Origin: a virus
Lineage: Duplodnaviria; Caudoviricetes
IMG/VR virus record: IMGVR_UViG_3300045594_000287
Location: 42,939-106,938 of that record
DNA length: 64,000 bases
Strand: one strand, 5' to 3'
Made by a program: the position numbers and the translations under genes. The notes beneath the pieces are model-generated. The model saw only the letters and a program-made list of their open reading frames with translations, did no database searches and was not told the DNA's origin. Shown here piece by piece: positions 1 through 46,709 of this stretch. Position 1 is the stretch's first letter. The number at the start of each line of letters is the position of its first letter.

Positions 1-2019
1 GCTGATATCGCACCGATGACCCCAGAATACAAGATGTGGAGAACGATTGCCCAGAAGACTGTGACGGATCCAGACCTCAAAGAGGATATGGATGATATTC
101 GTCAACGTGTTTCTCAACAGGGTAAGAAACATGATTTCTACGAATATAAATCCGTAGGACATGGTTTGGACTACGAGACCGTAACGGTATCCAGCGTTTT
201 GGGATATGGTAAATTTCGTTCGGGATCCAGTATCTATAAAGTCGCCGGAGTAAAAGTTCGCGGCAATGATAACGAGACTATGGACCAAGTGCTTGGGCGG
301 TATCTCCATGTGGGACAAACCGTAACAGTAGCCGTAGATTCAAACCAGGCATATCGGACAAATAGAGATACAGACCATACGATAGACGCTGCTGTGTTTG
401 TCGGTGGAGATAATATCTCTAAACAGATGCTTAAGAACGGTGATGCCACGGTTCGCAAAGGAGACACGTCTTCTGCTGCTATTCTGGCTAACTATGGGCC
501 GATCCAAAGAACAATCGGCTGGGTATCAGAATTGGTTGCTCACACGGATATTCCATGGCTGAGCGATCAGTTCTTGCGGGTCCGCTCCCCTCTCGAATCG
601 TACAGAGCAGAACAAGTATATGGCACTCCATATCAATCATGGGATCACCCAATTGACTCTTATCTAATGCCGGCATGGAATCGTTCCATTCATGGACGTT
701 CCATTATGGGCACTATTGGTACTTATGCATACCAAGCATTACGCGGTGTACCTATGAGTGCCTGGGATAAGAAAGCACTATCTGCTGCTTATCTCTTCGG
801 AAATCGCGGTGCCTTCATGGGCGCAGCGGTAACTAAAATGTTCTTTGCCAATGATGCGGAAAAAGTCATGAAGGGCGCGGATATAGGATCGAATCTGGTA
901 TCACTAGGGCATGTATTGACTGGTGGCAATAGCTACTTGGACGAAATGTCAAGCGCAGCTTCAATCGGAATGTCTGTTGCCAAGTACTTTGAAAAAGACA
1001 GTGGTAAGGGTGCCATTGCCGGAGCTCTCGTTGGAGCTGCGTATCGCACAGCAAAAGGACAAGCCGGCAAAGAATGGATACCAGAAAGAACACAGAAAAA
1101 ATGGGAAATGCAGGATTACTTTGATCGTCTTACCTATATCAAATACACTGCTCTTTATAAGGCTGCAGCTAAAAAGGCTAAGTCTGAAGAAGGCGTAGAC
1201 GTAGACAATCTCGTATCGTCAAGAGATTATAGGGAAGAAAAGCGTCAGAGTGCCCTCGAACGTTTCAAGGGTATAAAAGATGCTCTGCGCGGAACCAAGA
1301 GCAGTTACGAGCACAAGCAGATGATGAAGCTCTTGACAGGAAAAATCAATGCGCTCGACAATGACACTACGATCATTGAAGGTGGAAAATATACCCATTC
1401 CGCTCTTATATACAAGCAAGCAGCTGAAGCTACGATGTATGCTCTGAAGAAAGGGTCTTCATGGTCGCAGATCATCACAGCGTTGCCTACCAACGACAGA
1501 GAGTATTTTACAGAGTTCGTAAAAGAACGAGACCCTGGCAAGCGCTCTGATATATTGAAAACAGCCTCCCCTGCTCTGAAAAAGGCCCTCAACCTGGCCT
1601 GGGGCAAGGATGTCAAGAAAGATGAAGATAACGAGACTTATTTTGCGAAGCATAACCTGCCGCAACTCAACTGGGCTGGTTGGCGCCCGGATACGGATCT
1701 CAAAAACGTAGAAGTGAAAACTATTGCCAATGAAGGTATGAGCTTATCTGATTTTGGTTATTACGAATCGCAGCTTAGGGATCCGGACGTTATAAACGCC
1801 CCGTCTATTGTCAAACCAAAGCACAAGAACTCCCAAATGAATGGGGTGCGACGTAACCTGCAGAAGATCCTTGAAGGTCAAGGGTTAAAGAATGTGAGCG
1901 TCAACGTAACTGACAATGCTTTTGACGGACACCAAATAAAAGCAGATATAGGACTATTTACTGGCAAAAGACAAATTAACGGAATGGTAAAAGACCAGAT
2001 GGACGAGAAAACAAGATAA
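1..2019 (+). CDS. C-terminal part of a large, probably virion-associated protein with a degenerate thermonuclease (SNase)-like OB domain; 5'-truncated
   Basis: The frame is open from base 1. Segment ETVTVSSVLGYGK..YKVAGV..L..G.TVTVAVD..IDAAVFVGGDNISKQMLKNGDA follows the SNase pattern but lacks DGDT and the catalytic Arg. Gly/Ala-rich hydrophobic stretches lie downstream. Confidence 0.55.
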   Translation, partial: ADIAPMTPEYKMWRTIAQKTVTDPDLKEDMDDIRQRVSQQGKKHDFYEYKSVGHGLDYETVTVSSVLGYGKFRSGSSIYKVAGVKVRGNDNETMDQVLGRYLHVGQTVTVAVDSNQAYRTNRDTDHTIDAAVFVGGDNISKQMLKNGDATVRKGDTSSAAILANYGPIQRTIGWVSELVAHTDIPWLSDQFLRVRSPLESYRAEQVYGTPYQSWDHPIDSYLMPAWNRSIHGRSIMGTIGTYAYQALRGVPMSAWDKKALSAAYLFGNRGAFMGAAVTKMFFANDAEKVMKGADIGSNLVSLGHVLTGGNSYLDEMSSAASIGMSVAKYFEKDSGKGAIAGALVGAAYRTAKGQAGKEWIPERTQKKWEMQDYFDRLTYIKYTALYKAAAKKAKSEEGVDVDNLVSSRDYREEKRQSALERFKGIKDALRGTKSSYEHKQMMKLLTGKINALDNDTTIIEGGKYTHSALIYKQAAEATMYALKKGSSWSQIITALPTNDREYFTEFVKERDPGKRSDILKTASPALKKALNLAWGKDVKKDEDNETYFAKHNLPQLNWAGWRPDTDLKNVEVKTIANEGMSLSDFGYYESQLRDPDVINAPSIVKPKHKNSQMNGVRRNLQKILEGQGLKNVSVNVTDNAFDGHQIKADIGLFTGKRQINGMVKDQMDEKTR

Positions 2020-2022
2020 ATG

Positions 2023-2049
2023 AGCAGCTCCAATATGGAGCTGCTTTTT
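2023..2049 (+). terminator. Rho-independent terminator
   Basis: AGCAGCTCCA-ATA-TGGAGCTGCT hairpin followed by a T tract, immediately after the stop at 2019. Confidence 0.85.
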
Positions 2050-2124
2050 GTCCATATACAGATCGCAAAAGGGTAATGAAATAGTTAGTGAATACGTTAA
2101 TGCAGGTAGACTGCTGATATAGAG

Positions 2125-5100
2125 GTGCGAACATTGAGACAGAATTTTATAAATGACGATTCAAAGAAAATCGTTGAAAGCAAAGTAAATGATCATATCG
2201 GGAAAATCACCAGAAACTCCGTCGAAGAGCAGATCCTTGAAAAAAGCGATAAGACAGATAAAAATCTGTATAATAAAAATATTGACCAGTGGAGAGAGAT
2301 TCATGGCGCCGAAATAGCTAATGGACTTCTGAAGTCAACTGACGCGGTTGCGGGAATAAATGTCAGAGCGATAAAAAATACGCTGACAAACGCTCACAGT
2401 TCTCAGATCATAATGAATCCTTCTGAACTTTACGGGGAAACTCGTAAAAGTCGTTACCTCGAAGCAGACGTAAAAGAAGTCTACGAAAAAATGGGAATGG
2501 ATGCCTTCGAGCACGTCCTTGACCTGAATGAAACTGGAAGCAAATACTTTGTAGGAAAAACTGCAACCAGTATTGCATTCCAGCATACTAACCGTGGTGT
2601 AAAACAGAACTATGACAGAATGATGGCCGGAATCAAAAACTCCGAAGAAAAAGGCCTGTTCGTAGACTGGGATACAGAAACCATGAGCGGAACTAATAAA
2701 TTTGGAAAACAAATAGTCGACCAAATGACAGAGTTTACGTTCAAAGTTGCAAATTACGATGACGGATCTATTGTAAAAGGACGTTCCTACGGCTCGATCA
2801 TCGGTGCCACGGAAGCACAATACAATGACTACTTGAAAAAAATTGAACGCTATGAAAATGGTGGATCGCTTTCAAATTTAGATAGAGTTGAACTTAACCG
2901 CTTAGCTTTGATGGGTAAAAGCAAGGTCAAGGAAACCGAAAGCGGCATCCATAATTACTCCTATTTCGCTGGTGCGGAAGAAGTAGCTGAAAACCGTTCA
3001 GAGGATATGCGTGCCGGCCTCGAGCAGTTATTTGGTATAGGTAAAGCTCAGCAAGCAAAAGGCGCCGTAGAAGAATATGGCGGGCAGAAAATGTTTGCCT
3101 GGGAGAAAAAACTATTCCAGGGCTTAGATGAAATCATTCAAAATGATCTCACTGCAGTCGGACACAATACACTCACATTCGATAACGGCGTTATGCTTCA
3201 TCAGTTGCAGCATGGAATGTGGTCTGCAGGCGGCAAGGCATATGCTGACCAAATGCTTAAAGCTACCAATGGATTGCATTTTGAGCATGAGAATGATACT
3301 ATCGCGATGATTCGTCAATCCGTTCCAGATCGTCTTCAGATTTATCGCAATGCCGACGGTACGTTAAACCAAGCAGCAATGCAGTACAACAAAGAACATG
3401 GTCTTACACTATTCCAGCAGGAAGCGATTCAGAATGCAATGAATAGTGACTTCTATGCTTCTATTGGTGCTGCTCATACGTCAGATGTCGACGTACAGGC
3501 AAATGCTATGATGTACGCTTCAAATAAATTGAAGCTCAATACGGAAGAATCGTTCTTCAAAGGAATGCCGGAGTCTGCTCCATCGATCCAGCTGACTGGA
3601 GGAAGTAAGCAGCTACTGTATGCAATGGAAGGCGGCGGCATAGAATATAAGGGACTGCTGGGTTTTGTAACAGATCCATTGACTGGAGATATTCGCACAT
3701 CTGATAAGTATCGGATGAGTAAAGTACCTACGGGCGGAGAAATGGCTTCAGAAGTAAACAAAGACTTCTTTGCCACTGGCAACATTCACAAAGGTGTATC
3801 ATACACCATAAGCAATGCAACAAAAGTGGAGACGTCAGACGAGTTCCGCGACCTTATCGGGAAATATAGGCCGGGGATGGATGTCCGCAGTCTGGTAGCC
3901 GTACAACTTATGCCGGTATCCAATTCAAAAACAATGCGGGCAAAAACACCTTACACTTTGATTGGATCCATGACCGATGTGCAAGACTATATCAATCATA
4001 CTTTTTTGCATACTGGACATGCCGTTGAAGACTCCCAGGGACATAGAACCTGGACTGCCAATGGCATTCCGGAAGAATCGAGACGACTTCTTCAGGTAAG
4101 AGAATTTGCCAACGACGGTGTCCATGCCGGATTTAAGGATTATTCTCTCGAAGACCAGCTTGCTGAAAGCTCCTATCGTCTTACGAATGAATCTGCTGCC
4201 AGAGTAGTCCGTGCGCATGAACTGAAAAAAGACGTTGGCGTATTACGATACGTTCAGGATATGGATAAGTATGCCCGGGAAAACGCTATCGATCCGACTG
4301 ATGAATATCAGATGGAAAATATGCGGCAAAAATTCCGCGACAGCGTATTCAGCCGTTCAAAAAGCATCGAATCCAAAATTCGCAGTGGAAAAGGGTACGA
4401 AGCAGAAGAAATGGTTGGAACGTTCCACGACTATTTCGGGTATATAGATCGTGATACGAAAAATCCAATGGTATGGTCAGATACGGTCATGTCAGCTCTG
4501 GATCGCGAGGGATATGTTCGTAAAAACCAGCAAGTGATTTCCGGCGCTATTAAACATGCCTATGCAAGAGCAGGCGAGTCTGTTACTGATCAAGACATTT
4601 CTCATATGACTGCCCTTCAGAAAAAGAACAAAGAAGCTTCCGCCTACTATAGAATGTACATGGAGTCTGCTACAGATGCAGCTATCCGTAAATTTGGATC
4701 AGGCCGGCCCGTAGGGGAGCATCGGATGGGTATCCATACATACGAACTCAACCAGTTTGAGTTTGACATGAATGGTTACAAAGGGAATTTCAATCCAGAC
4801 AATGATATATTTAGTGTCCATCTCGGTGAAAATGGCAATACGATGGTCAATCGTTTGCTGCGTCATCAAGGCTTGCGCACAGACATATCTGATGAAGCAA
4901 AGATTGCCGAGCTGCGTAGATTTCAAAAATTTATTGGTGGATCCGAAACTCTCAGTGAGCTGAATTCAACCAGAAGAGAACTTCTGGAAAAAAACAACTT
5001 AATCAACATTGGTGAAGATACAATAGACTCTGCTGCAACGAAGATTATAACCCCGCTGCAGAACTCTCGTCAGTACCAGCCGGCAGGCGGTCGTATTACT

Positions 5101-8100
5101 CCTACGCTGAAATACGAGCTTGCCGCTTCCATGGAGAACATGGGACTTGATAACCCTGAGGAGGTGTTGTCAAAAGCAGATAAAACGATCCCCAAGATTT
5201 CTATATATAGTTCTAAAACTGGCGCAGACAGCTATGCACACGATATCGTTAACAGCGTATTGTTCAACGATCTTGATGGGAAAACACTCGATGAAGTAAG
5301 AGACGACCTCCAGGAGTATGGATATACTCGTGAGCAGGCAGAAAAAATCATCGCTATGAGAGAGCAGCGCAAGGCTGATGCGCAGCCGTTCATGAAACGA
5401 CTGATCGAAAGTGTTCAAAAAAATGGAGGCTCAATCGGATATAACGCAGAAGATCGTGAGGTGTTCGTAAGCCATAAAGGGAAGACAACAAAATTAAATA
5501 ATCTTCCCATGGATGAATACTCCAATGGAATGTTCTATACCAGGGTGAATAATTCAAAAGTCCATGCATCGTCAGGATTCTACGCTACTGGAAAGTATAA
5601 AGATGGAAAAGGAACTTTGAAGTTCGGTTCATCGTTATTGAAAGCTGGAGACAGCGTAGGCTGGATGGATACAGCTATCGCCAGAGGTGCTGAAAACGGA
5701 GACCTTGGAGATGAGGTAAACAGCGTCCTTAGTGGGTATGCGAAGGTTATTCGTGAAAATTCTTCTATCATGGAAGAAGATCTTCAGGACATGCGTGGGC
5801 AGTTTGACATTAACTATCGCGAAGTAGCCCCGTTTATCGAAGATAACTGGGATCAGATATCCCAAAATATGGTATTTGATGATTCGCCTCAGGGGCAGAT
5901 AAACCAGATTCTAAGAGATGCTGCGATGGACGGTAAACTTAGTGGTGACCGGCTTAACTTTGAGTTGAATTCTGCCATCATCCAGAATGCAGACAACATC
6001 TTGCCAGTAATGGCACAAAAATATGGTGGAAGCTATGCACAGACCATTATGTCTGGTTTTTCTCTCAATATGAAACATGCTGGAGAACTTAAGGCCAGCG
6101 CAACAGAAATAACGAATTTTGGCGACGACTTAGATAGTGGTAAGCGTGACGTAGCAAGCTTCACAGGACGTGCTTACAAATTCCGCGCGGATGGAAAAGT
6201 TGATGGTGTTCGTATAGGACAATCTGTAACATCTGAGATAGCAGGTAATTATGCAGAAGACGCCGGCGAAGGAATCTCATACGGTGTAGATACAACACTT
6301 CGTACTGGCCGTGTACGAATGACAACCAGCGGGCTGCGTAATCTCGTAAATAGTGCAGACATCGACAATGACTATGTACGAGACGTGTTGACTGGAATAC
6401 ATTTGGACGAAGGATCTGCTGCTGCCGATCCTAGACTTATAGATCAGTATTTCACTAGACGTAAGTCTATGCAGAGAATCGCAATGCATCGAATCTTTGA
6501 CATGGACAAAGATACAATCGATAACCTTAGCACGAAGCAGCATACTGCTCCAATTCTAAACATTGACCCTAAAACGGGTAATATCAGTTTCACGTATTCG
6601 AACGGCCTATTCGTAGAAAGCACAGACTTGTCGGGAGAAAGCCCGATTAGCGTCAAAGGATTCCAGGGTGCAAAAGAAGAAGTTGCAATCAAAGAAGCTG
6701 GTTTGTTCAACGTTGGCTTCTTCTCGAAGAAGGGTAATCTTTTTGCTGACCAGCAGAGCGTAACAGATCTTTTAAATAGCAAGAAATACCATGGCCGCAT
6801 CGTGAATGCAGAAGATTCGCGTCTAGAGGCTCTTAACGTCCTGAATGAAGTATACAACGCTTCGTTCTACAATCTGTCACTGGATGCCAACGGAAATACA
6901 AAACTCGGAGAACAAGCAGAAAAAGGCATGTATAATGCCCTATTTGCTACGCCTGGAGCAATAGATAAACGTGTAGGAAGCACATTAGACCGACTAGGCC
7001 TTAGCAGCATGAAGGATCTTGTGCCGAGGTTGGATTTCATCGAATCCCTAAACGCGAAAGATATATCAAAAACTCCATTGGGAGCAATGATCAGTGCAAA
7101 AGCTGGACGTAACGTATCTCATGATGAGATTCTAAAAGTAATCGGCAGTGAATTTAACAGTGCGAAAAGCATGTACGATGCAATGATGGAAGAGCGCTAT
7201 AAGCCATGGGATACGCTCGAAAGTATTGCTCGTAATGCTAATGTTATAAAAAATGGAGAAACGGTCCATGCTTTCAGCAACACGATTGCTGCAGAGAATA
7301 AGCATTTAAACGCACGATCCGTCTTGAGAGTTACAGATAACCTCCTCGAAAAATATAATGGGGATGCCCAAAAAGTCGCATCATTGCTGCAAGAAGCAAT
7401 GCCAGGGATTCACGTTGGTGGCAGCGGGCGGCTGTATCACAGTGGAGATATTGATATTGATGCTGTGATGGAAATAGCGAATAAGGAACTTGACGGCAAC
7501 GTAAGAACCTTCTACACAAATGGAAACAAAACCATTTCAGCAGAACAATTCAGCATGCTTCCTGAAGGCGAAAAAGGAAAATGGAAAAAGAACGAATCCA
7601 GTTATGCATACACTGAATTAATGCAGCTCCCAGACCAGGACCGTGAGCGCTTAAGTGACGAGAATGGAGTTGGCAAGACCCTAAAGATGGATCATCGTAC
7701 CAAGGCAATGCTTGATACCCAGGTCTACAGCAAAGAAGGTCTTAAGAATGTTCGTAATGGCTTTGTTGATTCAATGGGCAAAGAAGCTGGCGAAGCTCAG
7801 TATCGTAAGTATTTTATGGATGCCCAAAACGGAAAACTTGTGGCTGAAGGACTTAGCGACAAGATAAACGATTCAAGGTATTATGATCCAGGAGATAAAC
7901 GCGTTGCTATCGATGGAGGACAAGATTTAACTAAAAAAGACAAAGAAGAAATAAGCAAGGCAAAGGAAGAGCTTAGAAAATCTGGAATAAACAAAAAGAT
8001 TGCTGACCAGATAATCGAAGAAGCTCGAACCGCCGGAGTTAAAGACGTTGGCGTAGGGGCTATTAAGAAGCAATACTCTTACAATATGTATAGCGTTGCA

Positions 8101-10776
8101 GATGACTTCAACAGAAAAGGCGGACTAACTAAAGATGACATGATCAAAAAATGGGGGTACAAAGAACCTATTTCCTTGACCAGCTTAATCACCGGCGCAA
8201 GCGATACTGTCGGACTCGAAAAATCTATGTATGGATCGAATACGCTTATAGATTTACATATACCTGAACTGGGTGACCATCAGATATATGATGATGAAGC
8301 CCATCGTTATATGGCATTGCCTTGGGCTGATCCTAAAACAATGGGATCTTCAGATGAACTTGCTAGAACAGCATATCAGAAAAAAATTGCGGGCATGCAA
8401 AATGTTGTAAATCGAATGCGTCGAACAGCAGATGAAAACAATGGCCAAATCACAGATAAGGAAAAAATTGAAATCCAAGCAGATCTAAAAAATCGAGTAA
8501 CCCAAACACATGAAGCGATTGCCGCTCAACTTGTACAGAAGAAAGGCTTAATGGCTCAAGCTTCAGAAGCTCACTTCGGAGATGCTGGTTTCAACAAAGC
8601 TTATGGTATACAGCTCGAAGGCAACGAAAAAGGATTCTGGGGAAACATAAACTTTGATGGGCTAAATATCTCAAAAGAAGCTGGGAAGGGAGAAGCCGGA
8701 TTAGAGATTGATTACCAAGTGGCTGGAATGAAAGCGAGGAATCGTTTCTATAACGATAAATACTTCAAGTCATTAGGCCTGGATGAAGAAACGACAAAAG
8801 CTATCCAGGAAAATACATTTGATCGCTTGAACAACGGCGGAACATTATCATTGAATATCCGTAACCCACAGGGTTACGATAAATCGACCAGCGCCGCAGC
8901 AATGTATTTTGACAAATCAATAAAAGGTAACACACTTGCTACATCTGCAGTGATGTGGGAATCCAAAAAAGGCGATTATGACTCAGATGAAGCTGACTTC
9001 AAAATCCTTAAAGGCCGTGCCACTATCGTTGGGAATAATGGCAAGCAAACGGTAACTGATATTGACTATGCTACTTATCAGACGCTGCAGCAGGCCAAAG
9101 AAAAAGGCATAATCAAAGATATATCGATGTCCGAAGAAGGACTTAAACTCTTCGCAGACACTAAGAAATCAATCATGTATAACGCCGCAGACCGGAATAA
9201 AGCTTCAAGGTCTGAACTCGGGAATACTGAATTGGGGCAGGGAGAGTACAACTACAGTAAGTTATACAATGAGTCTCTTGAAGGCAATGGCAACGTTGAT
9301 AAGGTTGGCCACCATCATTTAACAACGGGGCTTAGAGAGCTTGCTCCTGAACGAAAAATGCAGCTGGCAAATATCTATAAAGATACTGAGCAAGCAGTCA
9401 TTAATAAGGTTGGCCAGGAAGCATACGACAAACTGGATAACGCATCTAAGCGATCTGAATACTTCAATTATGTCTCTGAAAATATGACTGGAGAAGCTTC
9501 AAACGAAGCGCGTAAAGCTGCAAGCTTTAATTTCAGAGTAGAGCGAAGCGCTCAGGATGCCGAAGCACGAGCGCGTAAAGTTGCTGCCGGCGAAATGAAT
9601 GACGCAGTGTTCAAGTATTTCCGGGTAGCTGAGCAGGCTAAATTCTCTGACGGGTCAAAAGTCTATAGCGGTGAAGATCTGAAGGCAATGGCTCAGGTTC
9701 ATACTGCATTGAACGAGGCGTTCTTATCTCCTAAGAACGAAAAAGGTGTTGGCAACATCTCAATTGCTTCACAGTTGAGAGATGCTTTCCAGGACGTGTA
9801 TCATGCAGCCAGGAGCAATAGCTTAAATACAGAAGCCAGAGAGAAAGCAAGAAACAAACTCATTGACATCATTGACCCGATCATTCAAGGCAGGCGCGGG
9901 AAAGAAGTTGCAAAGATCCCGGGGATGGAACTTGATGCTGAGGGCAAGGCTACTGAGGCTGGAGCAAGGCATGCAGCAGAAATATTCGCATCCGTAGCCG
10001 ACAGAGTAAGTTTAGCCGGGGTAAATATGAACACCTTGAATATGGGTGTTACTAGCGGGGCTACCTCAGACGGAATCATGCACGCCGCATACCAACGTGC
10101 CAGTGACAATATGATCATGGATATGGCTGAACATCAGGCAAACATCCAGAGAAAGATAAATGGTAATGGATACAGCTCAATAGAGGAATCTACTGGCATT
10201 CACGCCTTCAGAGGATACGAAAAAGAAAATGCCGAACTCATGAGAGAAAATGCAGCTGAGGCAGCACGCAAATTAAAAGACTATGAAAATGGGAAGGCTC
10301 CAAACTTATCCGATGCCGTACCTGTCAGTAGAGGATTGGGGAAAGAAATCGGAGAAGCCTTATCACACATGAAGATTACTGGTAAAGGCTTTGCAAAAGG
10401 CATGCTGGGAATTGCAGGTTCTCTTCTTGTTTCTGGGTATGCCAACAATCCGAGTGCCCCAGCAAGCAGCCAGCCTGCTCCGGCTGAGACTCAAGCTCAA
10501 GGAGCAACCGACTCAGCCAATGGGATGTCTGAAACTCAAGTGCCAAATCTATCTGACGGAAATGTGAATGTATTGAGGGGCGGTCCGAAGTCAGGATACG
10601 TAATCAATATCAATGCCACATCGCCAAGAGGACAATCAGCAGCACAAAACGCCATTAGCCAAGCGATTGGAGGAGCTGTTCCAATGAACTCTTCTATAAA
10701 TGTTGCCACCAATACATCGTACAAAGATAAAATAGACCAATTCCAAATTGGCAAAATCATAGAAGGAATGTTTTAA
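2125..10776 (+). CDS. Giant (~2880 aa) protein: N-terminal DEDDh 3'-5' exonuclease plus putative single-chain two-barrel (beta/beta'-like) RNA polymerase; likely virion-packaged
   Basis: Exonuclease motifs: WDTET, GHNTLTFD, AHTSDVD. RNAP-like motifs in order: HLDEGS (~6400), TKLGEQAEKG (~6900), IRNP (~8860), GDYDSD (8971-8988). There is a hydrophobic helix near the C-terminus. The true start is probably TTG 2134, after the GAGGTG SD. Confidence 0.7.
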   Translation: MRTLRQNFINDDSKKIVESKVNDHIGKITRNSVEEQILEKSDKTDKNLYNKNIDQWREIHGAEIANGLLKSTDAVAGINVRAIKNTLTNAHSSQIIMNPSELYGETRKSRYLEADVKEVYEKMGMDAFEHVLDLNETGSKYFVGKTATSIAFQHTNRGVKQNYDRMMAGIKNSEEKGLFVDWDTETMSGTNKFGKQIVDQMTEFTFKVANYDDGSIVKGRSYGSIIGATEAQYNDYLKKIERYENGGSLSNLDRVELNRLALMGKSKVKETESGIHNYSYFAGAEEVAENRSEDMRAGLEQLFGIGKAQQAKGAVEEYGGQKMFAWEKKLFQGLDEIIQNDLTAVGHNTLTFDNGVMLHQLQHGMWSAGGKAYADQMLKATNGLHFEHENDTIAMIRQSVPDRLQIYRNADGTLNQAAMQYNKEHGLTLFQQEAIQNAMNSDFYASIGAAHTSDVDVQANAMMYASNKLKLNTEESFFKGMPESAPSIQLTGGSKQLLYAMEGGGIEYKGLLGFVTDPLTGDIRTSDKYRMSKVPTGGEMASEVNKDFFATGNIHKGVSYTISNATKVETSDEFRDLIGKYRPGMDVRSLVAVQLMPVSNSKTMRAKTPYTLIGSMTDVQDYINHTFLHTGHAVEDSQGHRTWTANGIPEESRRLLQVREFANDGVHAGFKDYSLEDQLAESSYRLTNESAARVVRAHELKKDVGVLRYVQDMDKYARENAIDPTDEYQMENMRQKFRDSVFSRSKSIESKIRSGKGYEAEEMVGTFHDYFGYIDRDTKNPMVWSDTVMSALDREGYVRKNQQVISGAIKHAYARAGESVTDQDISHMTALQKKNKEASAYYRMYMESATDAAIRKFGSGRPVGEHRMGIHTYELNQFEFDMNGYKGNFNPDNDIFSVHLGENGNTMVNRLLRHQGLRTDISDEAKIAELRRFQKFIGGSETLSELNSTRRELLEKNNLINIGEDTIDSAATKIITPLQNSRQYQPAGGRITPTLKYELAASMENMGLDNPEEVLSKADKTIPKISIYSSKTGADSYAHDIVNSVLFNDLDGKTLDEVRDDLQEYGYTREQAEKIIAMREQRKADAQPFMKRLIESVQKNGGSIGYNAEDREVFVSHKGKTTKLNNLPMDEYSNGMFYTRVNNSKVHASSGFYATGKYKDGKGTLKFGSSLLKAGDSVGWMDTAIARGAENGDLGDEVNSVLSGYAKVIRENSSIMEEDLQDMRGQFDINYREVAPFIEDNWDQISQNMVFDDSPQGQINQILRDAAMDGKLSGDRLNFELNSAIIQNADNILPVMAQKYGGSYAQTIMSGFSLNMKHAGELKASATEITNFGDDLDSGKRDVASFTGRAYKFRADGKVDGVRIGQSVTSEIAGNYAEDAGEGISYGVDTTLRTGRVRMTTSGLRNLVNSADIDNDYVRDVLTGIHLDEGSAAADPRLIDQYFTRRKSMQRIAMHRIFDMDKDTIDNLSTKQHTAPILNIDPKTGNISFTYSNGLFVESTDLSGESPISVKGFQGAKEEVAIKEAGLFNVGFFSKKGNLFADQQSVTDLLNSKKYHGRIVNAEDSRLEALNVLNEVYNASFYNLSLDANGNTKLGEQAEKGMYNALFATPGAIDKRVGSTLDRLGLSSMKDLVPRLDFIESLNAKDISKTPLGAMISAKAGRNVSHDEILKVIGSEFNSAKSMYDAMMEERYKPWDTLESIARNANVIKNGETVHAFSNTIAAENKHLNARSVLRVTDNLLEKYNGDAQKVASLLQEAMPGIHVGGSGRLYHSGDIDIDAVMEIANKELDGNVRTFYTNGNKTISAEQFSMLPEGEKGKWKKNESSYAYTELMQLPDQDRERLSDENGVGKTLKMDHRTKAMLDTQVYSKEGLKNVRNGFVDSMGKEAGEAQYRKYFMDAQNGKLVAEGLSDKINDSRYYDPGDKRVAIDGGQDLTKKDKEEISKAKEELRKSGINKKIADQIIEEARTAGVKDVGVGAIKKQYSYNMYSVADDFNRKGGLTKDDMIKKWGYKEPISLTSLITGASDTVGLEKSMYGSNTLIDLHIPELGDHQIYDDEAHRYMALPWADPKTMGSSDELARTAYQKKIAGMQNVVNRMRRTADENNGQITDKEKIEIQADLKNRVTQTHEAIAAQLVQKKGLMAQASEAHFGDAGFNKAYGIQLEGNEKGFWGNINFDGLNISKEAGKGEAGLEIDYQVAGMKARNRFYNDKYFKSLGLDEETTKAIQENTFDRLNNGGTLSLNIRNPQGYDKSTSAAAMYFDKSIKGNTLATSAVMWESKKGDYDSDEADFKILKGRATIVGNNGKQTVTDIDYATYQTLQQAKEKGIIKDISMSEEGLKLFADTKKSIMYNAADRNKASRSELGNTELGQGEYNYSKLYNESLEGNGNVDKVGHHHLTTGLRELAPERKMQLANIYKDTEQAVINKVGQEAYDKLDNASKRSEYFNYVSENMTGEASNEARKAASFNFRVERSAQDAEARARKVAAGEMNDAVFKYFRVAEQAKFSDGSKVYSGEDLKAMAQVHTALNEAFLSPKNEKGVGNISIASQLRDAFQDVYHAARSNSLNTEAREKARNKLIDIIDPIIQGRRGKEVAKIPGMELDAEGKATEAGARHAAEIFASVADRVSLAGVNMNTLNMGVTSGATSDGIMHAAYQRASDNMIMDMAEHQANIQRKINGNGYSSIEESTGIHAFRGYEKENAELMRENAAEAARKLKDYENGKAPNLSDAVPVSRGLGKEIGEALSHMKITGKGFAKGMLGIAGSLLVSGYANNPSAPASSQPAPAETQAQGATDSANGMSETQVPNLSDGNVNVLRGGPKSGYVININATSPRGQSAAQNAISQAIGGAVPMNSSINVATNTSYKDKIDQFQIGKIIEGMF

Positions 10777-10924: not shown

Positions 10925-13900
10925 ATGGCTAACGAAAATACGACTGAAACAGTAAACAAAGACGTTGCGGCTGCTGCCGATCATGTCAACAACATGGATT
11001 ACCGTGTCTCTGATAAGAATTTCAAGACCCCTGAAATGGGAGATTTTTATATTGGTGCTGTAGATAGCACATATCTTAAAAGACTGGATGAAATAGTAAA
11101 TGGAAAGGGAGAAGGTGAAGGAGACGATAAGAATGCCGCCTTCTACACTGAAGCCCCTCCGGTAAAAGAGCTTGGAGAAACACCTACGTCTCTGTTCGTG
11201 AAAGCTCATGTTAACATTTCCCAGGATGATATCGATAACGGATTGTGCAACGGAAACACTTTGAATGTAAGTCTTGATGGCATTGTCGGCGATTCCGAAG
11301 GAAAAGCAGTAAGCAATATTCAAGCATCTATGTTTAACAATACATTCAATACACCAATGGTTGGAACGGAAAGTAAAAATATTTCTGTTCGTCTGGTAGG
11401 AATGAAATGCCCAGCTAATCCGAAATGGGCTCAAGAAAAAGGAGTTAAAAAGGACTCTATAAAAATGAAGACAGTAGCTATAGGGGATGCCGCAAAATCC
11501 TCTGACTATGTTTTTGCTAACGGCATCCACGATAAGTCCGAAACGATTACGGTTGCTTATATCGGAAATAAATGGAGAGAGATAACCATTTACAACCAAG
11601 ACGACAATGTAATGGATTTTCGTTGGTGTGTTGATAGCGGCGACTCTGATGGAGGAAGCAAGGATTCCGGAGGCGTTACTGCAGCGAATAACTTAAAGAA
11701 ACTGATTGATAGTGCTAATGGAGAAGTGTATTTTCTATTAGATAAGAATTCTTGTCCAACTCAGTTTGCATCAACATCGAGTGATATTTTATCTGATAGC
11801 AGCGCGATCCAACAACTGGCATCATGGAATAAGACTAACGACAATTCGAGCAACGGCTTAAACCAAGTTACTCAAGATGCAGCAGCCAGATTCATAGGAG
11901 CTGCCTATGTAAAACGTGATGGAAAATGGATAAATCTTACGAAAGCAGCCCTTACGGACGATTCTAACCAAACGCTGTCTGCTGATACCTCATACGATGG
12001 TAAATGTAGAGACGTTTTTAAGCCCGCACGCTATGATAAAGATTCGGTCAACTACGCCGATGCGTTTATGAAACTTACCGATGAAATTGACGATCGTAAG
12101 AAAATCCAACATGATATTTTCAACTCAACTCCAGAAGATCTTCGCAAATGGACAGTCACTATAGGCGACGTAACATTATTCGTCCCCCCGACAAGCATTA
12201 CGTGCACCTCTGAAATTGAAAACGAGCGGTTACCAATGCTGAGATCTAAAGGCAGCATGGCAAAAACAGGCCGAAGAAGTGTGCGTCATATCCAGATGCA
12301 CATATACTTTAACGAGGAGCGGGGGATTAACGGGTTCAAATATGAAGCAAAGACTCCGAATGGATCTGCTATAAAATACTCTATCAATGGACTACGATCT
12401 TTAGTCGCTCAGTTTAAGTTCGTTCCGTATGTACCGATTGATAATGAATACATCAATGAAACGCTTGGAATAAGTGCTGTAACTGTAAATAATCTCAGCG
12501 TAAAAAACGTAAATGGTTACCCCCGTTTATTGGATGCTACGCTGACAGTTACTGAATTCGACTATACCGTATACATGCCAGAAGCTACGCTTACAGGTAT
12601 AGACAATGGCGGATTCGTTAATTTTTTTGCAGCTGCTATAAATTGGCCAACTATGCGCTATTACTACCAGCGGGCACTTTCGTATGGAGATTCATTCAAA
12701 GAGAATGGATTAACTTACAATTCTTCCGACTATAACAAGGCAATCATTAAGAATCGTACATCGCTGATCCCAATGTCGTTTACCGACCCAAATGTCAAAT
12801 TTTATGTTGCGAGTGCAGATTACCTCGATAAAATGTTACAAGCCAAGCTTAATGCAAAACGCGGCAAGGGCGATAATAATATTAGCTTTACGCCTGATGA
12901 AAAGAATGCAGCAAAAGATCTTGGAACAATATACGATGCAATAGACGCTTGTAAGAACGACGGAGAATTTCAGAATGCACTTGCTAAATTGAATTCCAGA
13001 GATTTAGCCTGGAGTCCGAAGTACTCTGAAAACGGCAACTACATAAACCTTACGGGTGATACAGCGTTCTCAGGAAAGGAACAATATAGCCAGGGCATGG
13101 TTAGCGGTACAAATCTCTGTATGGTCGCAAGTGGATACACTGGGGATCGTGAAGGAGTAGAAAAAGACCTGAATGGCGCCCTGTCTCTTTTAAAAGCCCA
13201 TATGGATGAGGTCAATGAGAAGGCGGGAAAGACTATTCTCTCTGATCCAAAATTCTATATAAAATGTAGCGGAGGCAATGACGAACGTAAATTCTCTGCT
13301 GGTGTATCTTACGCAGTAAACCTTGAGTATCTTTCTACGGATGCGAATTACAATGACATAAGAAAAGACGTGTCGAATTATATCGATGCGAACTCAGAAG
13401 ACTTCTTCAATGATCGTCGCATAAACGTTCCATTGTCGCTTCCATTGAGCAACCCAAGTGAAAATTACAAAACAACAGTGATGCCTAAAAATGGAGAGCT
13501 CTCGATCGACATGGACAATAAAGATGTTGCTTTTCTGAAGTATTGCCAAACTCTTGGCAAAGAAGCTCCGGATCCGAATGACACGAAACGTATCAGCTTT
13601 GTCAACCTTAATCAGCTCGATAATCTTTATTATGAAGAGTATACGATGCCTGAAACACGGGTATCGAACTGGAGCGTGGCGTTGACTAACCACATCTCAA
13701 ATCTCAATGTATGCGAGATATCCGGCTCTTCTCCTCAGTATCTTGGTGGTGAAGATTTGGCCATTACCATGGAGGTTACCACCACAAGCGATGAAGTCGT
13801 AAAGAAATTATCCTGCCTGCCACAGATCTGTGCAGCATATGGCCGTAAATATCATAGCATTCTCCCTGCGAGTGTGATCAAAGTTCAGTCAGAATTTGCC

Positions 13901-16900
13901 CAATTCTTTGGTGTGAATGAAGTGCTAGTCCAAAATGTACAAGTAGACACTACTCCAAATCTCCCTTCTGTAAAAACGATAACAATAGAGCTTATATCCA
14001 ACGATAGAAGCTTACGCAATCGAGAAGCTTTGAATAAAATTGAAGCGGATAACGCAGGAAAGATTGGAGGAAACGAGCAAGCTGACCGCTCGATAAAGAG
14101 TTACTTCGACATCGAAAAGACGATTGCGCAAGCAGAACTGTATCCAGATCTTGAACTTCCTACGATAGATGAAATGCAATCTGCTGGCTGGGATTATGTA
14201 AGATATAAGTTCCAAGATGACAGAAAATATGTTGATCCAGATTTCTACTTCCTATACTTGAATACATTGAGTTCTCAGATCATCAGAGAATCAATTATCA
14301 CGTCAAAAGATTCGGGGGCAGGGGCAACAACAACGTGGAAGGATTCAACTGGCGCAAATATCAAAACGGAAATGTCTGCTCGTAAAGGCTTCAATGTAAT
14401 CGCAAGAGATGCTAAAGCGCAAAAGCAGAAAGATAAAGTTATTGCTATACAGAACTCAACGAATAAGCTGAACTCAAAAGATCTAACTGAAAATCTTAGG
14501 GATTCTAATCTGTCAAATGCAGAAGCAGCTGACGGCACGGAAACATGGGATATCTGTGAAGACATAAAAGCGGTGTTCCTTGAAAAGGGGTATAAGCAAG
14601 AGTATGATTCCTATCAAGCTCGCGTTCATGCTCAGCAAGTAAGCGGTACAACTGGAAATGCTGGTGCTATTGACATCAGCGGGACTGACAAGACAGCAAC
14701 GCAAACTGCTGCCACTTCATCAACCACGGCAGCTACGAATACCACAGATACATCTTCGAAAGCAGCAGATACCACGAGCGATTCCTCAGATACCGAAAAA
14801 ACAGATGATGCAACAAAATCCGACAGTTCATCTGGAGATATCCAAACAGAGGGGAAATGGGTAGCTACCCAGCTTGCAGATGCACAGAAAGCGTCAAAAG
14901 CTATTGAAGAGTATCTAAACGGAACTGGCATAACAGAAACCGTAACCGACAATAATGTAGTAAAAGAAGCTGCTTCTAAGCAGTCTGCTTCAAACGTCTT
15001 GTCCACAAGTGTTGGAAAAAGCGACACTCCGACGACTGCAGGAACGAGCGAGGCATCGACGTCAGATAAAACAACCACAACATCAACAGAAAAAACATGC
15101 CAGGACAATTCGATGGAAAGCAAGATATCCGAAGCAGTAAATAAATTCTTTCAGGATGCATCCGTCCAAGCAATTCTTGGGTTCTTAAATGTTGAATACA
15201 CGAATGAAACATTCCTGGCTACAGTTAGAGATATCGTTTATGCTGCTGCTTGTGCAGCCACTGGCGAAAAAGAATACTCAAATAAAGACCAAGCTACCGG
15301 ATGGAGGCCGTCACCTGACTTCATTGGTGTCGTAACAGGTAATGGTCAGGATGATAGCAACACCACACTAGCAAAAACAGTTGATGAAGCAATGGATAGG
15401 GCCATAGAATTTGGTTGCTTTAAAATAAAGCAATACGACAGTTCTACATTTCTTAAGATGACCGGGGAAAGCCCAAAAGACGTGTGGGGAGGCAGCGAGG
15501 ATACCAATGCAACTCACTTTTTAATTGATCCATACTACAGAAGCAAATCGATTGAGGAAATTAAGCAGTACAAAAAAGGATGTATCAACAATGCAAGATT
15601 CTGCACAATGGCGTACCTTCGCATCATGCTGTATTGGTTGAAAAAGTTGATTGACATCCAAGCTTTCCCAGCAATGACTGCTGACGTATTAAGGTCGGCA
15701 GCCAAAAACGAAATGTCCATTATTCAAAAGAACAAAGAAAAAAATGTAGATGGCGACATGGATAAATCTATGGAACAGCATTTGAACTTTTTCAGCAAAC
15801 GGTCGTATGCAGTAGATGCCGGAAAGTTTTGGACAGCATGTACCCTAGCATCAGGTGATGGGAATACAACTATTTTTGATCGAATTAAAAAGCGTGATTA
15901 TCGCGGTTTGAATGGTTACATCTCTGGGTGTTCTAAGCCGGCAAGCTTTATCGATCCTTCCGATAATGGAAGTTTAGCTGTACGTAAAATGACCCTCGCT
16001 TTGGTTGGCAAAAAACGAATTAAAGATTCGGATGCTATAGGTGTTCCACAAAATACGCCTGCCACTACCTACATGAGAGACCTGTCAGAAAAAAAATATA
16101 TTGAAGCAGCAGAAGATCCAGCAACTTACTGCATGCATGCTTGTCACGATATGATAGTAAACGATGCAAGAGGGCGCATGCTTAGAGCTTTTCCTACGTA
16201 CTACATGATGTTCATAGATGAAGGCAGAGAAATCGGCATGTGGAAGCTCCATGACAACTTCTATAACAATATGTGCATTTCCAGTATCCAGGTCGTGAAA
16301 TCCAGAAAACTTCCGGCGGATACGGCTATTGTATGTATGAGTAACTTCTACCAGTCATTCACAACTGAAAATGAAGATTATCAAAAAGTAGAAGAAGAAA
16401 CCTGGGGCAATACATTCAAATCTATTATGAGTCCATTCTTCTCGGATGATTATGGTAAGGAGCAAGAAGCCAAACGCAAATCGGCACCGCCTGAAGATAA
16501 GATACGACTCCGCCCGGGTGCACGCATTCATATCCGTATGGGGTACGGATCAAACGCAGCCATGCTGCCGGTTGTCTTTAACGGTAACATTGCGGAAGTA
16601 ACCGCTACAGACACCGTTGAGTTCCAGGCCCAGGGTGATGGCGTGGAGTTGATGAATCCAATCGTAGATGATACGGAAGGACATCAAATTATAAATCAAG
16701 ATAGCCTGGTGAAAGGTTGGTTTACCAACGGAGGAACTCCGAAAGATATCATGAACGCCATCCTGACTTCTTGTGGCGGAATCATAAAAGCCGCTATGAA
16801 AGATCTCGGACGTCAAGATCTTCTCGGTAGAAACCCATACGGAATTTATCATTTTGGTAATCCTGATTTTACACGGATTTTTAAATCAGGAGAGCCAACT

Positions 16901-28168: not shown

Positions 28169-30315
28169 TGTTCGAACCAAACAGCAGAATAGAACGTGTT
28201 GATAATGGCATCCGCTTTTACGAGCAGGACATACTCTGCTCTTCATATATTTTCGAGGGCAATCTGGTAGTCGATGTAAAATTCGACTACCTAGCTCCCG
28301 GTTTTGGAATTGTTATAGCAGATGATAACGACAAAGGATTTATCGACTCAAAGTATGCCTACTTCTTTAAGCTCGGAATAGACTCATTCAAGATATACGA
28401 ACGGCATATGAATTCAGTAGACAACCCGCAGACAAACTCATGCATATTTGCGCCTGGAGACAACAAGCTGAATCAGCATATAGCATTAGAGATAGGCAAT
28501 ACGCATGTCGCAATGAAGCTCATTCGCAGCAACAATGACGGTGTCGACGATACAATAGAACTTGGTTCATATGATTTCAAAAATGAGTTTGGACGATACC
28601 GGGTCGGAATATATTCCAATGCTGGAAACGTCGTACGCTCTCTGACATTCAAATCAGGAGCTCCTAATAACTGGAGAACCAGTATCAAAAATACCTTTGG
28701 CGGACGCATTGCATTCATGCAAGATGGTTTCGAGTTCGAAAACTGCGCACATGATGCAGAGATCGAGCAGGAAGACGTGGACTTAAAGGCCGGGACATAC
28801 TTCATGGATTATAAAACATTCAATGTAAATGGTAAGTTCGACATCGAATGTTACATATTCCCATCCAAGATGTCGCGAGTAGAAGATAAGCAATTTGAAG
28901 ATCCTAAGAAACAGCTGCTGAAAAAGGATGGCAGCTTTACCATCGATAAGGATATGAAGGTAAACGTAAAATTCAAAGGGACATATGGAAAAATCACAAA
29001 CATCTGTATGAAAGATAATCGAGATAGTTCTTTTGTCAGAACTGAAGGAGCTCCTATATCCAATGACGGCAGCTGGATAGCCGTAAGCTTAACGGGGGTA
29101 CGTTCGGTAGAATGGACTGGCATAATCACAAATACCCCAAAATGGTCCGACCTGACAAAGCCATGTCCATATGCGATATTTTCTACAAGCAACATAACAG
29201 TGACAAAAGAAAAAAGCGATATCACTTTCGGCAGTTACTTCGACTTCAAATATACAGTTGACATTGGGATGCTAACGATAACGGATCCGGCGACCGGTCT
29301 GTCGCACTCCATCGATGCGCCGCTATCTGCGGCAGACAACAATACTATAAAAATCTTCCAAAATATCACCGCGGTAATTACAAAGTTCGTTATTACTGAT
29401 CACAACGGAAGAGAGAACAGCGTTCTCTTTTCAAAAGGATTTCATTCTTACGTGCCAGGATCAATCAACAGTCCTATAATCATCACATCAAATAAGGGCG
29501 CAGCACTCGATCTTTCGGCGGCTTATCGGGAAGTTGTACTTCCACAAGTTAAGATTGAACTTTTCAACCTGAGCAAACCATTGGAGTTATCCGAACACAT
29601 CGTTAGTTCATTTAGCGAAATCGAATTGTATGGTATTCCACATGGGGTTACGGTGTCACCACAAGAAACCGAGATCAGCAAATATGCTCCAGGAGCAATC
29701 AGAATCTCGGATGAAAAATATGTGGCCAACGGAAATGTGATAACTCTTGATCAGACTACTCGAGAAAAGTTCAGATATATCGCTGCCAGGTATATAAGTG
29801 CAGAGAATTATAGTTACCAGTTTACAAATGTAGAACGAGAGTTGTTTTCCAGTTCGCAGAAGCGATTCATCGTATCGAAAAAAATTGCTAAGTCAAGTGA
29901 TGCAGTAAATGTATATGGTATACCAGAGTCTGCAGAGATATGTGAAGATCGTTTCTTTAGGATCCCTCAAAAGACGATGACGCACTCAATTGACCTATAT
30001 GCAGATAAATACGACGCATTGCCCGCCGCAGCGTATACAGTATTGAAAGAGATGAACGAGATCGTAATCGATCCTTTCTACAAAAAGAAGTATTGCAAGT
30101 TTATAATCGATTACGACAAGGCGGACAGCTATTCGATCAATTTCTCGAGCGACATATCACAATACGAAATTGATGTAATGTCGACCGATTCTCGAGTAAC
30201 ACTTTCATACGACATGTACGACGATGGCAGTGTGAATGATTATATCAAGACCGATATAGTTCCTGATAAAAGTAAGTATATCGTGCTCAAGAGAAAGAGG
30301 ATGAAAGAGAATTGA
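28165..30315 (+). CDS. Putative baseplate/virion structural protein (~716 aa)
   Basis: Overlapping start (TTG 28165 or ATG 28168) after GAGGTG; beta-rich; operon context. Confidence 0.5.
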   Translation: MMFEPNSRIERVDNGIRFYEQDILCSSYIFEGNLVVDVKFDYLAPGFGIVIADDNDKGFIDSKYAYFFKLGIDSFKIYERHMNSVDNPQTNSCIFAPGDNKLNQHIALEIGNTHVAMKLIRSNNDGVDDTIELGSYDFKNEFGRYRVGIYSNAGNVVRSLTFKSGAPNNWRTSIKNTFGGRIAFMQDGFEFENCAHDAEIEQEDVDLKAGTYFMDYKTFNVNGKFDIECYIFPSKMSRVEDKQFEDPKKQLLKKDGSFTIDKDMKVNVKFKGTYGKITNICMKDNRDSSFVRTEGAPISNDGSWIAVSLTGVRSVEWTGIITNTPKWSDLTKPCPYAIFSTSNITVTKEKSDITFGSYFDFKYTVDIGMLTITDPATGLSHSIDAPLSAADNNTIKIFQNITAVITKFVITDHNGRENSVLFSKGFHSYVPGSINSPIIITSNKGAALDLSAAYREVVLPQVKIELFNLSKPLELSEHIVSSFSEIELYGIPHGVTVSPQETEISKYAPGAIRISDEKYVANGNVITLDQTTREKFRYIAARYISAENYSYQFTNVERELFSSSQKRFIVSKKIAKSSDAVNVYGIPESAEICEDRFFRIPQKTMTHSIDLYADKYDALPAAAYTVLKEMNEIVIDPFYKKKYCKFIIDYDKADSYSINFSSDISQYEIDVMSTDSRVTLSYDMYDDGSVNDYIKTDIVPDKSKYIVLKRKRMKEN

Positions 30316-32084: not shown

Positions 32085-32087
32085 ATT

Positions 32088-34046: not shown

Positions 34047-34050
34047 CACA

Positions 34051-34497
34051 ATGGACAAGGCAAACATTTCATGGTACGCAAAAACTGGAGCGGATATAAA
34101 ATATGCTGCTACGGAAGAGATATATGCAGGTACTCATACAGACGAAACCCCGGTAACGGCATCCGTTCAACTTTGGAACAATCGCTGGGGAAAGTATGAT
34201 GTAGAGGATTTGGCAAACTTCAACATCCTGATGTATTTCAGAGAACTTGAAGATTTCGCGCTATTGCCGTATTGCTCGATAACGGTAAACGGGAAAGCAC
34301 AGAATTTCGAGTACATAAACCATAGAGCGATCATAAAATTCGATACACCGCCGATCCTCAAAGGGACGGCCAACAATGGCAAGAGCGAGGGAAATGAAAA
34401 CAATTATTTAGCATTCGATATAACCTTCTCGGCGCCAAACAAAAATCTCAAGGAGGACGATCTGAAGTCTTTATATTTCGAGATCGTCAAACAATAA
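34051..34497 (+). CDS. Hypothetical structural protein (148 aa)
   Basis: ORF at the end of the baseplate operon. Confidence 0.5.
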   Translation: MDKANISWYAKTGADIKYAATEEIYAGTHTDETPVTASVQLWNNRWGKYDVEDLANFNILMYFRELEDFALLPYCSITVNGKAQNFEYINHRAIIKFDTPPILKGTANNGKSEGNENNYLAFDITFSAPNKNLKEDDLKSLYFEIVKQ

Positions 34498-34560
34498 CGG
34501 GGTATCAAAGGTAATAAATCCTATGAGCAAAGAATGATGGCTCGTAGGGGGACAATCATC

Positions 34561-34588
34561 AGGAGTAGTCTTCCGGCTACTCCTTTTT
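34561..34588 (+). terminator. Rho-independent terminator upstream of the tailspike gene
   Basis: AGGAGTAGTC-TTCC-GGCTACTCCT plus TTTT. Confidence 0.8.
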
Positions 34589-34620
34589 CGTTCCTCAAAA
34601 TATAGAATGGAAGTGAAATA

Positions 34621-38814: not shown

Positions 38815-38826
38815 GGAGGCTAATAA

Positions 38827-41157: not shown

Positions 41158-41168
41158 GGAGGATTAAT

Positions 41169-42293: not shown

Positions 42294-42298
42294 ATATA

Positions 42299-42324
42299 GA
42301 CTCCGACCTCGGTCGGAGTTTTTT
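42299..42324 (+). terminator. Rho-independent terminator
   Basis: ACTCCGAC-CTCG-GTCGGAGT plus T tract. Confidence 0.85.
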
Positions 42325-42416
42325 CTTTTATCTGTACAATTTGTAAGTGTACGTTGGGTGTTCTACAGCGTAATCAATTTATGAAATACAATTTCATGAA
42401 TAAAGGAGGAATACTC

Positions 42417-42938: not shown

Positions 42939-43001
42939 GCTGGTATCCCTCGCATCAATAGCAGTGCGAGGGATATTGGTATCTATGGAGGTTTTTACAC
43001 C

Positions 43002-43017
43002 TCTACAATGCGTAATA
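43002..43017 (+). promoter_or_regulatory. Putative late promoter of the fibre + radical-SAM operon
   Basis: TCTACA-ATGC-GTAATA matches the motif at 10881 and 62775; preceded by a hairpin at 42944-42975. Confidence 0.5.
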
Positions 43018-43054
43018 TAGTCAATAGATAATGTCGAAAAGAAAGGTGAAATAT

Positions 43055-44422: not shown

Positions 44423-44436
44423 GGAGGAACTAAACG

Positions 44437-45750: not shown

Positions 45751-45762
45751 AGGAGTGATACC

Positions 45763-46707: not shown

Positions 46708-46709
46708 TT

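Follow-up and report, generated by a model that had tools for sequence, protein, structure and literature searches.

To our knowledge, two-barrel RNA polymerases (RNAPs) borne by phages have been demonstrated experimentally in only a few lineages: gp66 of crAss-like phages, gp96 of phage P23-45 and the multisubunit enzymes of phiKZ and AR9. crAss phages are podoviruses. In phi14:2, gp66 (PDB 6vr4) is a giant virion protein of 2180 amino acids (aa) that carries two barrels in one chain and is the middle of three tandem giants, g067-g066-g065, all of which are virion proteins by mass spectrometry (MS) in the phi14:2 record. In the siphovirus P23-45, the polymerase lies at the N terminus of a true 5002-aa tape measure that also has metallopeptidase and membrane domains. 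This gp96 enzyme (PDB 8h2m/8h2n) is likewise a single-chain two-barrel polymerase within a giant tail-module protein, has a DFDGD motif and otherwise no detectable RNAP similarity, and is presumed to enter the host through the tail; a tail-protein-fused RNAP is thus on record (PMC10770324). Here we describe the product of a giant gene in a 64-kb window, by which we mean the whole stretch analysed, the 3' 64 kb of the 106,938-bp IMG/VR virus record IMGVR_UViG_3300045594_000287, which is judged ~45% complete. Very probably the protein joins a DEDDh exonuclease to a two-barrel polymerase whose catalytic residues are intact. The fuller statement, that it is a virion-built, tail-delivered, DNA-dependent RNAP that transcribes the first phage genes and is fused to this exonuclease, we consider reasonably probable.

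The gene is the middle of three tandem giants. Residue numbers are counted throughout from its GTG codon at nucleotide (nt) 2125; the database copy is 2880 aa long, 100% identical, and starts three codons later, at 2134. The gene and the parts of its product that carry the argument are as follows.

2125..10776, + strand: giant open reading frame (ORF), middle of three tandem giants, 2883 codons counted from GTG
2647..3504, + strand: DEDDh 3'-5' exonuclease domain, residues ~175-460, from conservation plus a profile match
6289..7644, + strand: predicted beta/Rpb2-like module, residues ~1389-1840 (model m1e51cf1e9f58, VIA)
8116..9885, + strand: predicted beta'/Rpb1-like module, residues 1998-2587 (model mfdad666011f5, Foldseek, VIA)
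8581..9210, + strand: predicted second double-psi beta-barrel, residues ~2153-2362, holding the RxP motif and the Asp triad
9490..9651, + strand: predicted 54-residue helix, residues 2456-2509 (model H1069-1122), with invariant G2489

A word-indexed search returned seven relatives (29-37% identity), and profile searching of all 1.84 billion representatives gave 91 clusters, nearly all of 2500-3700 aa. At 50% identity the family comprises ~90 clusters, all metagenomic, with no known polymerase among them. Conservation counts given below come from a hidden Markov model alignment of ~85 distant homologues that are 18-38% identical, in which the mean column identity of the surrounding sequence is 14-21%. 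Searches for described relatives were negative: Pfam and PHROGs gave no real match to the whole 2883-aa protein, megablast and tblastn against 50,697 phage records matched nothing (whole protein, and the barrel alone at E<=1), and a pattern scan of IMG/VR returned no relatives. Neither an eight-sequence nor a 32-sequence family profile found an RNAP among PDB sequences, the former matching nothing at all. The Pfam models RNA_pol_Rpb1_2 (PF00623) and RNA_pol_Rpb2_6 (PF00562) had no match anywhere in the record in a search that went to E<=10 and in which the control genomes all matched, and the Pfam model for RNA-dependent RNA polymerases (RdRPs) had none in the record either.

Predicted structure gave a different picture. 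AlphaFold2 models were built from a 32-sequence alignment for residues 1388-2587 (mfdad666011f5; predicted local distance difference test (pLDDT) 85.1, predicted template-modelling score 0.84) and for residues 1340-1997 (m1e51cf1e9f58; pLDDT 84.8). The best 50 Foldseek matches of the 1388-2587 model in the PDB were all bacterial beta' subunits (E 2e-5 to 5e-4), with 90 matches at E<=1e-3. VIA-align of model positions 611-1200 (residues 1998-2587) reached Z ~11, with 300-380 residues aligned to the largest subunits of RNAPs, drawn from every domain of life as well as from viruses (Rpb1, A190, C160, archaeal A', African swine fever virus (ASFV) and vaccinia) over their N-termini to ~residue 1390. 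Generic barrels, such as the Cdc48/VAT N-domain and designed double-psi beta-barrels, aligned at model positions 765-975 with Z 7.3-8.4. Conservation continues beyond this barrel (G2489 74/74, A2488 63/74, K2537 70/70), and we take the long helix at 2456-2509 as a candidate bridge helix.

The other module resembles the partner subunit. VIA-align compared the 1340-1997 model with 48,161 chains, with no Foldseek prefilter, and only nine of them reached Z>=8 (Z 9.4-10.8; 189-259 residues aligned). All are second-largest RNAP subunits: ASFV RPB2, Pol I A135, the phiKZ/AR9 non-virion beta-like subunits, plastid/Xanthomonas beta, Pol IV, vaccinia Rpo132 and Pol III C128. After these, Z dropped to 6.0 or below, with generic barrels, P23-45 gp96 (5.8), gp66 (4.8) and QDE-1 (4.6). 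The first double-psi beta-barrel is interrupted in the models by a helical insert and by strands at ~1451-1534, the latter matching a beta-rich insert that an earlier note, made from the letters and translations of this stretch, had described between the HLDEGSA and TKLGEQAEKG strings.

Both barrels of the 1388-2587 model were spanned at once by QDE-1 (Z 8.8, 303 residues), P74-26 gp62 (Z 8.4) and maize RDR2 (Z 7.3), the alignments to single-chain polymerases covering model positions 1/2 to 1173/1177. Because these polymerases align over both barrels, the predicted arrangement reads as a two-barrel active centre, with the barrels juxtaposed in the model so as to form one site. phi14:2 gp66 was absent from the best 50 VIA matches of this model. 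In a viral structure library, uncharacterised giants came first (the best labelled 'minor tail protein'), followed by a crAss 'putative RNA polymerase' and by giant-virus and jumbo-phage RNAP subunits. The earlier note had proposed a divergent single-chain two-barrel RNAP in this protein; the models are confident and their two barrels match beta'- and beta-type subunits specifically, which bears the proposal out.

The residues expected at such a site are present in the expected order. The strings and the residues within them are:

6400-6420, + strand: HLDEGSA, residues 1426-1432, read directly from the ORF
6409..6411, + strand: E1429, acidic residue of 'HLDEG' (E 72/79 plus D 6/79)
6898-6927, + strand: TKLGEQAEKG, residues 1592-1601, read directly from the ORF
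6901..6924, + strand: K1593 ... E1599-K1600, putative first-barrel basic pair; compare beta GDK..(8)..KG
8857-8868, + strand: IRNP, residues 2245-2248, read directly from the ORF
8860..8868, + strand: R2246-N-P2248; compare beta' NRAPTLH and gp66 YRIPNQG
8971-8988, + strand: GDYDSD, residues 2283-2288, read directly from the ORF
8974..8988, + strand: D2284-Y-D2286-S-D2288, predicted Mg-binding triad (each Asp 83/83)

All four strings lie in the 2125-10776 ORF where the earlier note had placed them, and the distance it gave from IRNP to the first Asp is correct: R2246 precedes D2284 by 38 residues, the corresponding interval being 35 residues in E. coli beta' and 39 in gp66 of phi14:2; the gp66 string YRIPNQGQSS resembles IRNPQGYDKSTS upstream of the triad here. 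A bare DxDxD is not beyond chance in this protein, since ~0.96 are expected for its composition, so that the decisive question is conservation. Such strings occur at 1412, 1459, 1775 and 2284, four in all, and only that at 2284 is conserved, with each of its Asp residues found in 83/83 homologues. The other three, DIDND, DMDKD and DIDID in that order, could mislead motif-based annotation. Conservation extends to the RxP string (R2246 82/84, P2248 84/84, Y2251 66/84, S2254 77/84) and to the Lys pair (K1593 82/85, E1599 84/85, K1600 85/85), for which the counterpart in E. coli rpoB is GDKMAGRHGNKG at 1063. Double-psi barrels are present in the models, and the DxDxD, RxP and Lys motifs are conserved among homologues, both being points on which the proposal could have failed.

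Two of the motif comparisons needed adjustment. HLDEGSA had been likened to the beta FEDS string, and its acidic residue is conserved. By order and spacing, E1429 may be the counterpart of the FEDS Glu/Asp (E813/D814); the other positions are poorly kept beyond close relatives (H 16/78, L 27/78). Likewise, DYDSD had been described as a departure from the canonical DxDGD. The Ser is indeed present here, but position 4 of the triad is S in 42, G in 36, A in 3 and T in 2 of the 83 homologues and the family pattern is D[YNF]D[SG]D; because 36 of 83 carry Gly, DYDSD is a subfamily variant of DxDGD rather than a family-wide departure. A residue other than Gly at this position is compatible with activity, since crAss gp66 is active with DFDID (10.1101/2020.03.07.982082).

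We then asked how the core compares with described two-barrel enzymes. With multisubunit RNAPs (beta/beta', or Rpb2/Rpb1; phiKZ/AR9 non-virion enzymes, PDB 7ogp and 7s00), it shares the barrel order of beta then beta', the two Lys of the first barrel, the RxP followed 35-39 residues on by DxDxD in the second, and an acidic residue that a strand-rich insert separates from the Lys pair ~165 residues on (here E1429 and ~1451-1534). These enzymes are also the best structural matches of both halves (Z 9.4-11.1). Unlike them, the giant protein is one polypeptide rather than 2-5 subunits, has no Pfam RNAP matches, carries Ser for Gly at triad position 4 in its own subfamily, and adds a fused exonuclease, ~1700 further residues and a tail-module location. 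About 650 residues separate its barrels, as they would if beta and beta' were fused end to end; the connector between barrels is ~140 residues in gp66 and QDE-1 (10.1101/2020.03.07.982082). According to Iyer et al., a flap domain is inserted into beta barrels of the cellular type and is missing from the YonO/RdRP lineage (PMC7824862). Barrel spacing, the strand-rich insert and the gap in VIA Z scores together suggest that the core is nearer the multisubunit beta/beta' lineage, including the jumbo-phage enzymes, than the crAss/QDE-1 lineage. This placement is moderately supported, because Z depends on aligned length.

The earlier note had invoked the crAss and P23-45 enzymes as precedents. That likeness holds for the giant single-chain two-barrel design and stops short of kinship: the core is closer to multisubunit beta/beta', and judged by sequence the protein is not a relative of either gp66 or gp96. 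gp66 belongs to the QDE-1-like lineage, gave no profile match (hhalign probability 0.4 against the family) and matches structurally over the barrel only (Z 4.8). It shares a non-Gly residue at triad position 4 and an R-x-P-x-Q-G..S string 39 residues upstream; the crAss-like triad DFDxD with Ile or Val at position 4 does not occur here, and crAss phages have no fused exonuclease, whereas the giant protein has one. The gp96 match also covers the barrel only (Z 5.3-5.8, ~95 residues). In contrast to gp96, the protein described here belongs to a phage with a contractile tail, holds its polymerase in the C-terminal two thirds (1389-2590 of 2883) and includes an exonuclease; it gave no match to a peptidase family (Pfam, PHROGs) and shows no strongly hydrophobic window of the kind that a gp96-type architecture would bring. 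It therefore differs from the known virion- or tail-associated single-chain two-barrel RNAPs in lineage, domain architecture and fused nuclease.

That nuclease, which the earlier note did not mention, is conserved across the family in the same protein. Its motifs are Exo I D183/E185 (D-x-E), Exo II N348/D353 (N-x3-F-D) and Exo III H451/D456 (H-x4-D), and the catalytic positions are nearly invariant (D183 75/75, E185 75/75, D353 80/80, H451 75/80, D456 76/80), N348 being conserved as well. The 32-sequence family profile matched PDB 9mrd_A/9mrc_A ('exodeoxyribonuclease III', 195 aa) at E 3.7e-7 from Exo II to Exo III, with Exo I aligned separately in that comparison. Exo I, II and III are shared with DEDDh exonucleases of the DnaQ/RNase T type. 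Unlike those enzymes, the giant protein has a large insert between Exo I and Exo II, which lie ~165 residues apart, and no Pfam RNase_T match: no Pfam exonuclease family was found on seven N-terminal domains of the family, and a comparison of the N-terminal domain with E. coli DnaQ by hhalign gave a probability of 0.1. A DEDDh exonuclease fused to a two-barrel polymerase, the architecture described here, was not found in the literature searched. The most likely role for the domain would be to trim or proofread 3' ends.

Together, these results suggest how the protein might work. Three recognisable parts follow one another along the chain, an exonuclease (~175-460), a beta/Rpb2-like part (~1389-1840) and a beta'/Rpb1-like part (~1998-2590). 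The two barrels would face each other as in cellular RNAP, so that a single polypeptide forms the active centre, with the second barrel supplying R2246-x-P and the Mg-binding D2284-x-D-x-D ahead of a long bridge-helix-like helix. As a built-in part of the virion, the polymerase would pass down the contractile tail together with the DNA and then transcribe the first genes of the phage without recourse to the host polymerase, while the exonuclease would trim or proofread 3' ends. RNA synthesis, packaging and injection are proposed here from gene position and by analogy with crAss gp66 and P23-45 gp96.

Several observations weigh against this interpretation. No sequence-level link to any known RNAP emerged from Pfam, from hhalign against gp66 or from the PDB profiles, and the models are predictions resting on a 32-sequence alignment. 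TM-scores were low (0.10-0.14) and root-mean-square deviations high over the long structural alignments, and Foldseek on the 1340-1997 model, although its best 50 matches were mostly beta/Rpb2, gave a best E of 6e-3 and none at 1e-3 or below. The Asp triad and the Lys pair are placed at a putative metal- and nucleotide-binding site by motif order and spacing. Virion packaging, and with it the injection that the earlier note had also proposed, is deduced from gene position; the 2883-aa protein has no strongly hydrophobic window. Because the record is incomplete, the phage may encode further polymerases. Finally, a fused 3'-5' exonuclease is abnormal for RNA polymerases and typical of DNA polymerases.

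The genomic setting is the basis for the packaging proposal. The relevant features in the window are:

1..2019, + strand: first giant gene, C-terminal 672 codons in the window (2146 aa in full, record 38517-44957)
10925..19192, + strand: third giant gene, 2755 aa, with a lysin-like region plus hydrophobic segments
10402..10773, + strand: conserved C-terminal domain of the middle giant, residues ~2760-2883 (Y2825 82/82, N2828 80/82, G2771 75/82)

Upstream in the record are genes for a Dda-like helicase, the large terminase, the major head protein and a tail sheath protein, and downstream of the three giants are a baseplate-wedge-like gene and then tail fibres; the genes thus belong to a large, contractile-tailed phage. 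The RNAP-like gene is co-oriented within this structural block, between the tail sheath and baseplate genes, and occupies the tail-module slot expected for tape measure or ejection proteins. Neither Pfam nor PHROGs matched the first giant (2146 aa), which lacks any DxDxD and shows no detectable similarity to either of its two companions. Residues 1986-2442 of the third match phrog_20474 'endolysin' (a 1954-position PHROG) at E 1.8e-177; this third giant also gave a weak match to DUF6046 and has hydrophobic windows at residues 2285-2396. BLASTP detected no C-terminal signal shared among the three giants. The neighbourhood is conserved: relatives, one of them on a 260-kb contig, keep the three-giant order (~2130, ~2900 and ~2750 aa), after which come a 120-aa gene and a lysozyme or glucosaminidase gene. 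In the middle giant, a Gly/Ala-rich, mildly hydrophobic stretch precedes the conserved C-terminal domain, which may have a role in virion incorporation or ejection.

This setting bears on the alternative that the protein is a genuine two-barrel RNAP that is never packaged, being made after infection for middle or late genes, with its place in the tail module incidental. Non-virion two-barrel RNAPs are known (P23-45 gp64 and the phiKZ non-virion enzyme), one such enzyme, P74-26 gp62, is among the structural matches here, and the structural and conservation evidence fits an unpackaged enzyme equally well, packaging being read from gene position. However, the gene lies within a co-oriented structural block running from tail sheath to baseplate and is flanked by two giants, as are the MS-verified virion proteins of phi14:2. 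Its length of 2883 aa, as against 592 aa for gp62, and its conserved non-catalytic domains, the C-terminal one included, are typical of ejected proteins. We consider an unpackaged RNAP unlikely.

A second alternative is that the chemistry is other than proposed, the protein being a DNA polymerase, a primase-like enzyme or an RNA-dependent enzyme that proofreads with its fused exonuclease. Archaeal PolD, which combines the two-barrel DP2 with the exonuclease DP1, is a model for such an enzyme. It is mainly because of the fused exonuclease, conserved family-wide in the same chain, that we continue to weigh an enzyme that is not a plain RNA polymerase. The Asn that stands two positions before the first Asp in beta' (NADFDGD) is mostly Lys here (K 54/83, N 9/83), and the two-barrel superfamily includes DNA polymerases and RNA-dependent enzymes (PMC7281927, PMC7824862). 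Against this, the best and longest matches are to the largest and second-largest subunits of DNA-dependent RNAPs, over N-terminal regions and past the bridge-helix region, no PolD chain is among the matches listed, and the RxP arginine is conserved; we regard this alternative as distinctly improbable. A related and only tentative idea, which we would not favour, is that the exonuclease acts in cis with the two-barrel site, making the protein a polymerase with a separate nuclease for proofreading or 3'-end processing. It could then be an RNAP with DNA-polymerase-style editing, or a two-barrel enzyme acting in DNA synthesis or repair on the injected genome, and, at the same tentative level, its beta-beta' fused core could be a missing link from the multisubunit RNAPs of cells and jumbo phages to single-chain viral enzymes.

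Loss of catalysis, leaving a structural ejection or tail-length protein of polymerase descent, might be suspected from the tape-measure region of the contractile-tail module in which the gene lies, and from the 'minor tail protein' label of the best viral structural match. Yet the predicted catalytic residues of both polymerase and exonuclease are invariant or nearly so among homologues that are 18-38% identical, while their surroundings vary (14-21%), which argues for selection on catalysis and makes this explanation very unlikely. The idea that the motifs came together by chance in so long a protein, which the expectation of about one DxDxD against the four present might invite, is effectively refuted, given that only the 2284 motif is conserved (83/83) and that two independent domain models match beta' and beta subunits, respectively.

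The polymerase model also has structural matches among uncharacterised giant proteins of cultured phages, the nearest analogue being in Acinetobacter phage ME3. Foldseek against BFVD matched the model to a 1607-aa ORF of the Acinetobacter jumbo phage vB_AbaM_ME3 (E 1.3e-6) and to a protein of Microcystis phage MaMV-DC (E 2.3e-3). In ME3 (KU935715), positions 29369-44985 hold three tandem giants of 1267, 1607 and 2333 aa, and the match is the middle one (33160-37980), with a DHDQD at aa 1221 that is the only DxDxD among the ME3 giant ORFs. The ME3 ORF is much shorter than the 2883-aa protein. Family profiles gave nothing significant against ME3, no significant sequence match to the family was found for the ME3 or MaMV-DC proteins, and the literature that mentions ME3 reports no polymerase for it. 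ME3 also has a 5422-aa ORF at 104786-121051 (- strand).

Some gene content around the giants varies among relatives. In two relatives (L002, 7884-9269, - strand, and the P0004 contig), giants 1 and 2 are separated by a gene of opposite orientation for a plasmid-type replication initiator (Pfam Rep3_N/Rep3_C), and in another relative (L006, 18235-19080) a ParA/CbiA-type ATPase gene is found just downstream. Such genes may be a hint of a phage-plasmid lifestyle in part of the lineage; the interval between giants 1 and 2 in the window (2019-2125) holds no replication initiator gene. Directly after the tail fibres, the window has a co-oriented run of genes (43031-56601) that encodes at least two radical SAM proteins, at 46710-47687 and 51035-51982, which match phrog_1802 at E 1.5e-40 and 1.5e-28, respectively.

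If the reading is correct, one more group of large contractile-tailed phages would have early transcription that does not depend on the host, through a family of ~90 metagenomic clusters that has no match to Pfam, PHROGs or any PDB RNAP sequence. The finding would provide a natural single-chain beta-beta' core, useful for studies of minimal RNAPs and of RNAP evolution, and would raise a new question of mechanism: the part played by a DEDDh exonuclease in a transcription enzyme. It would also give a function to part of the class of giant 'hypothetical' genes in phage tail modules.

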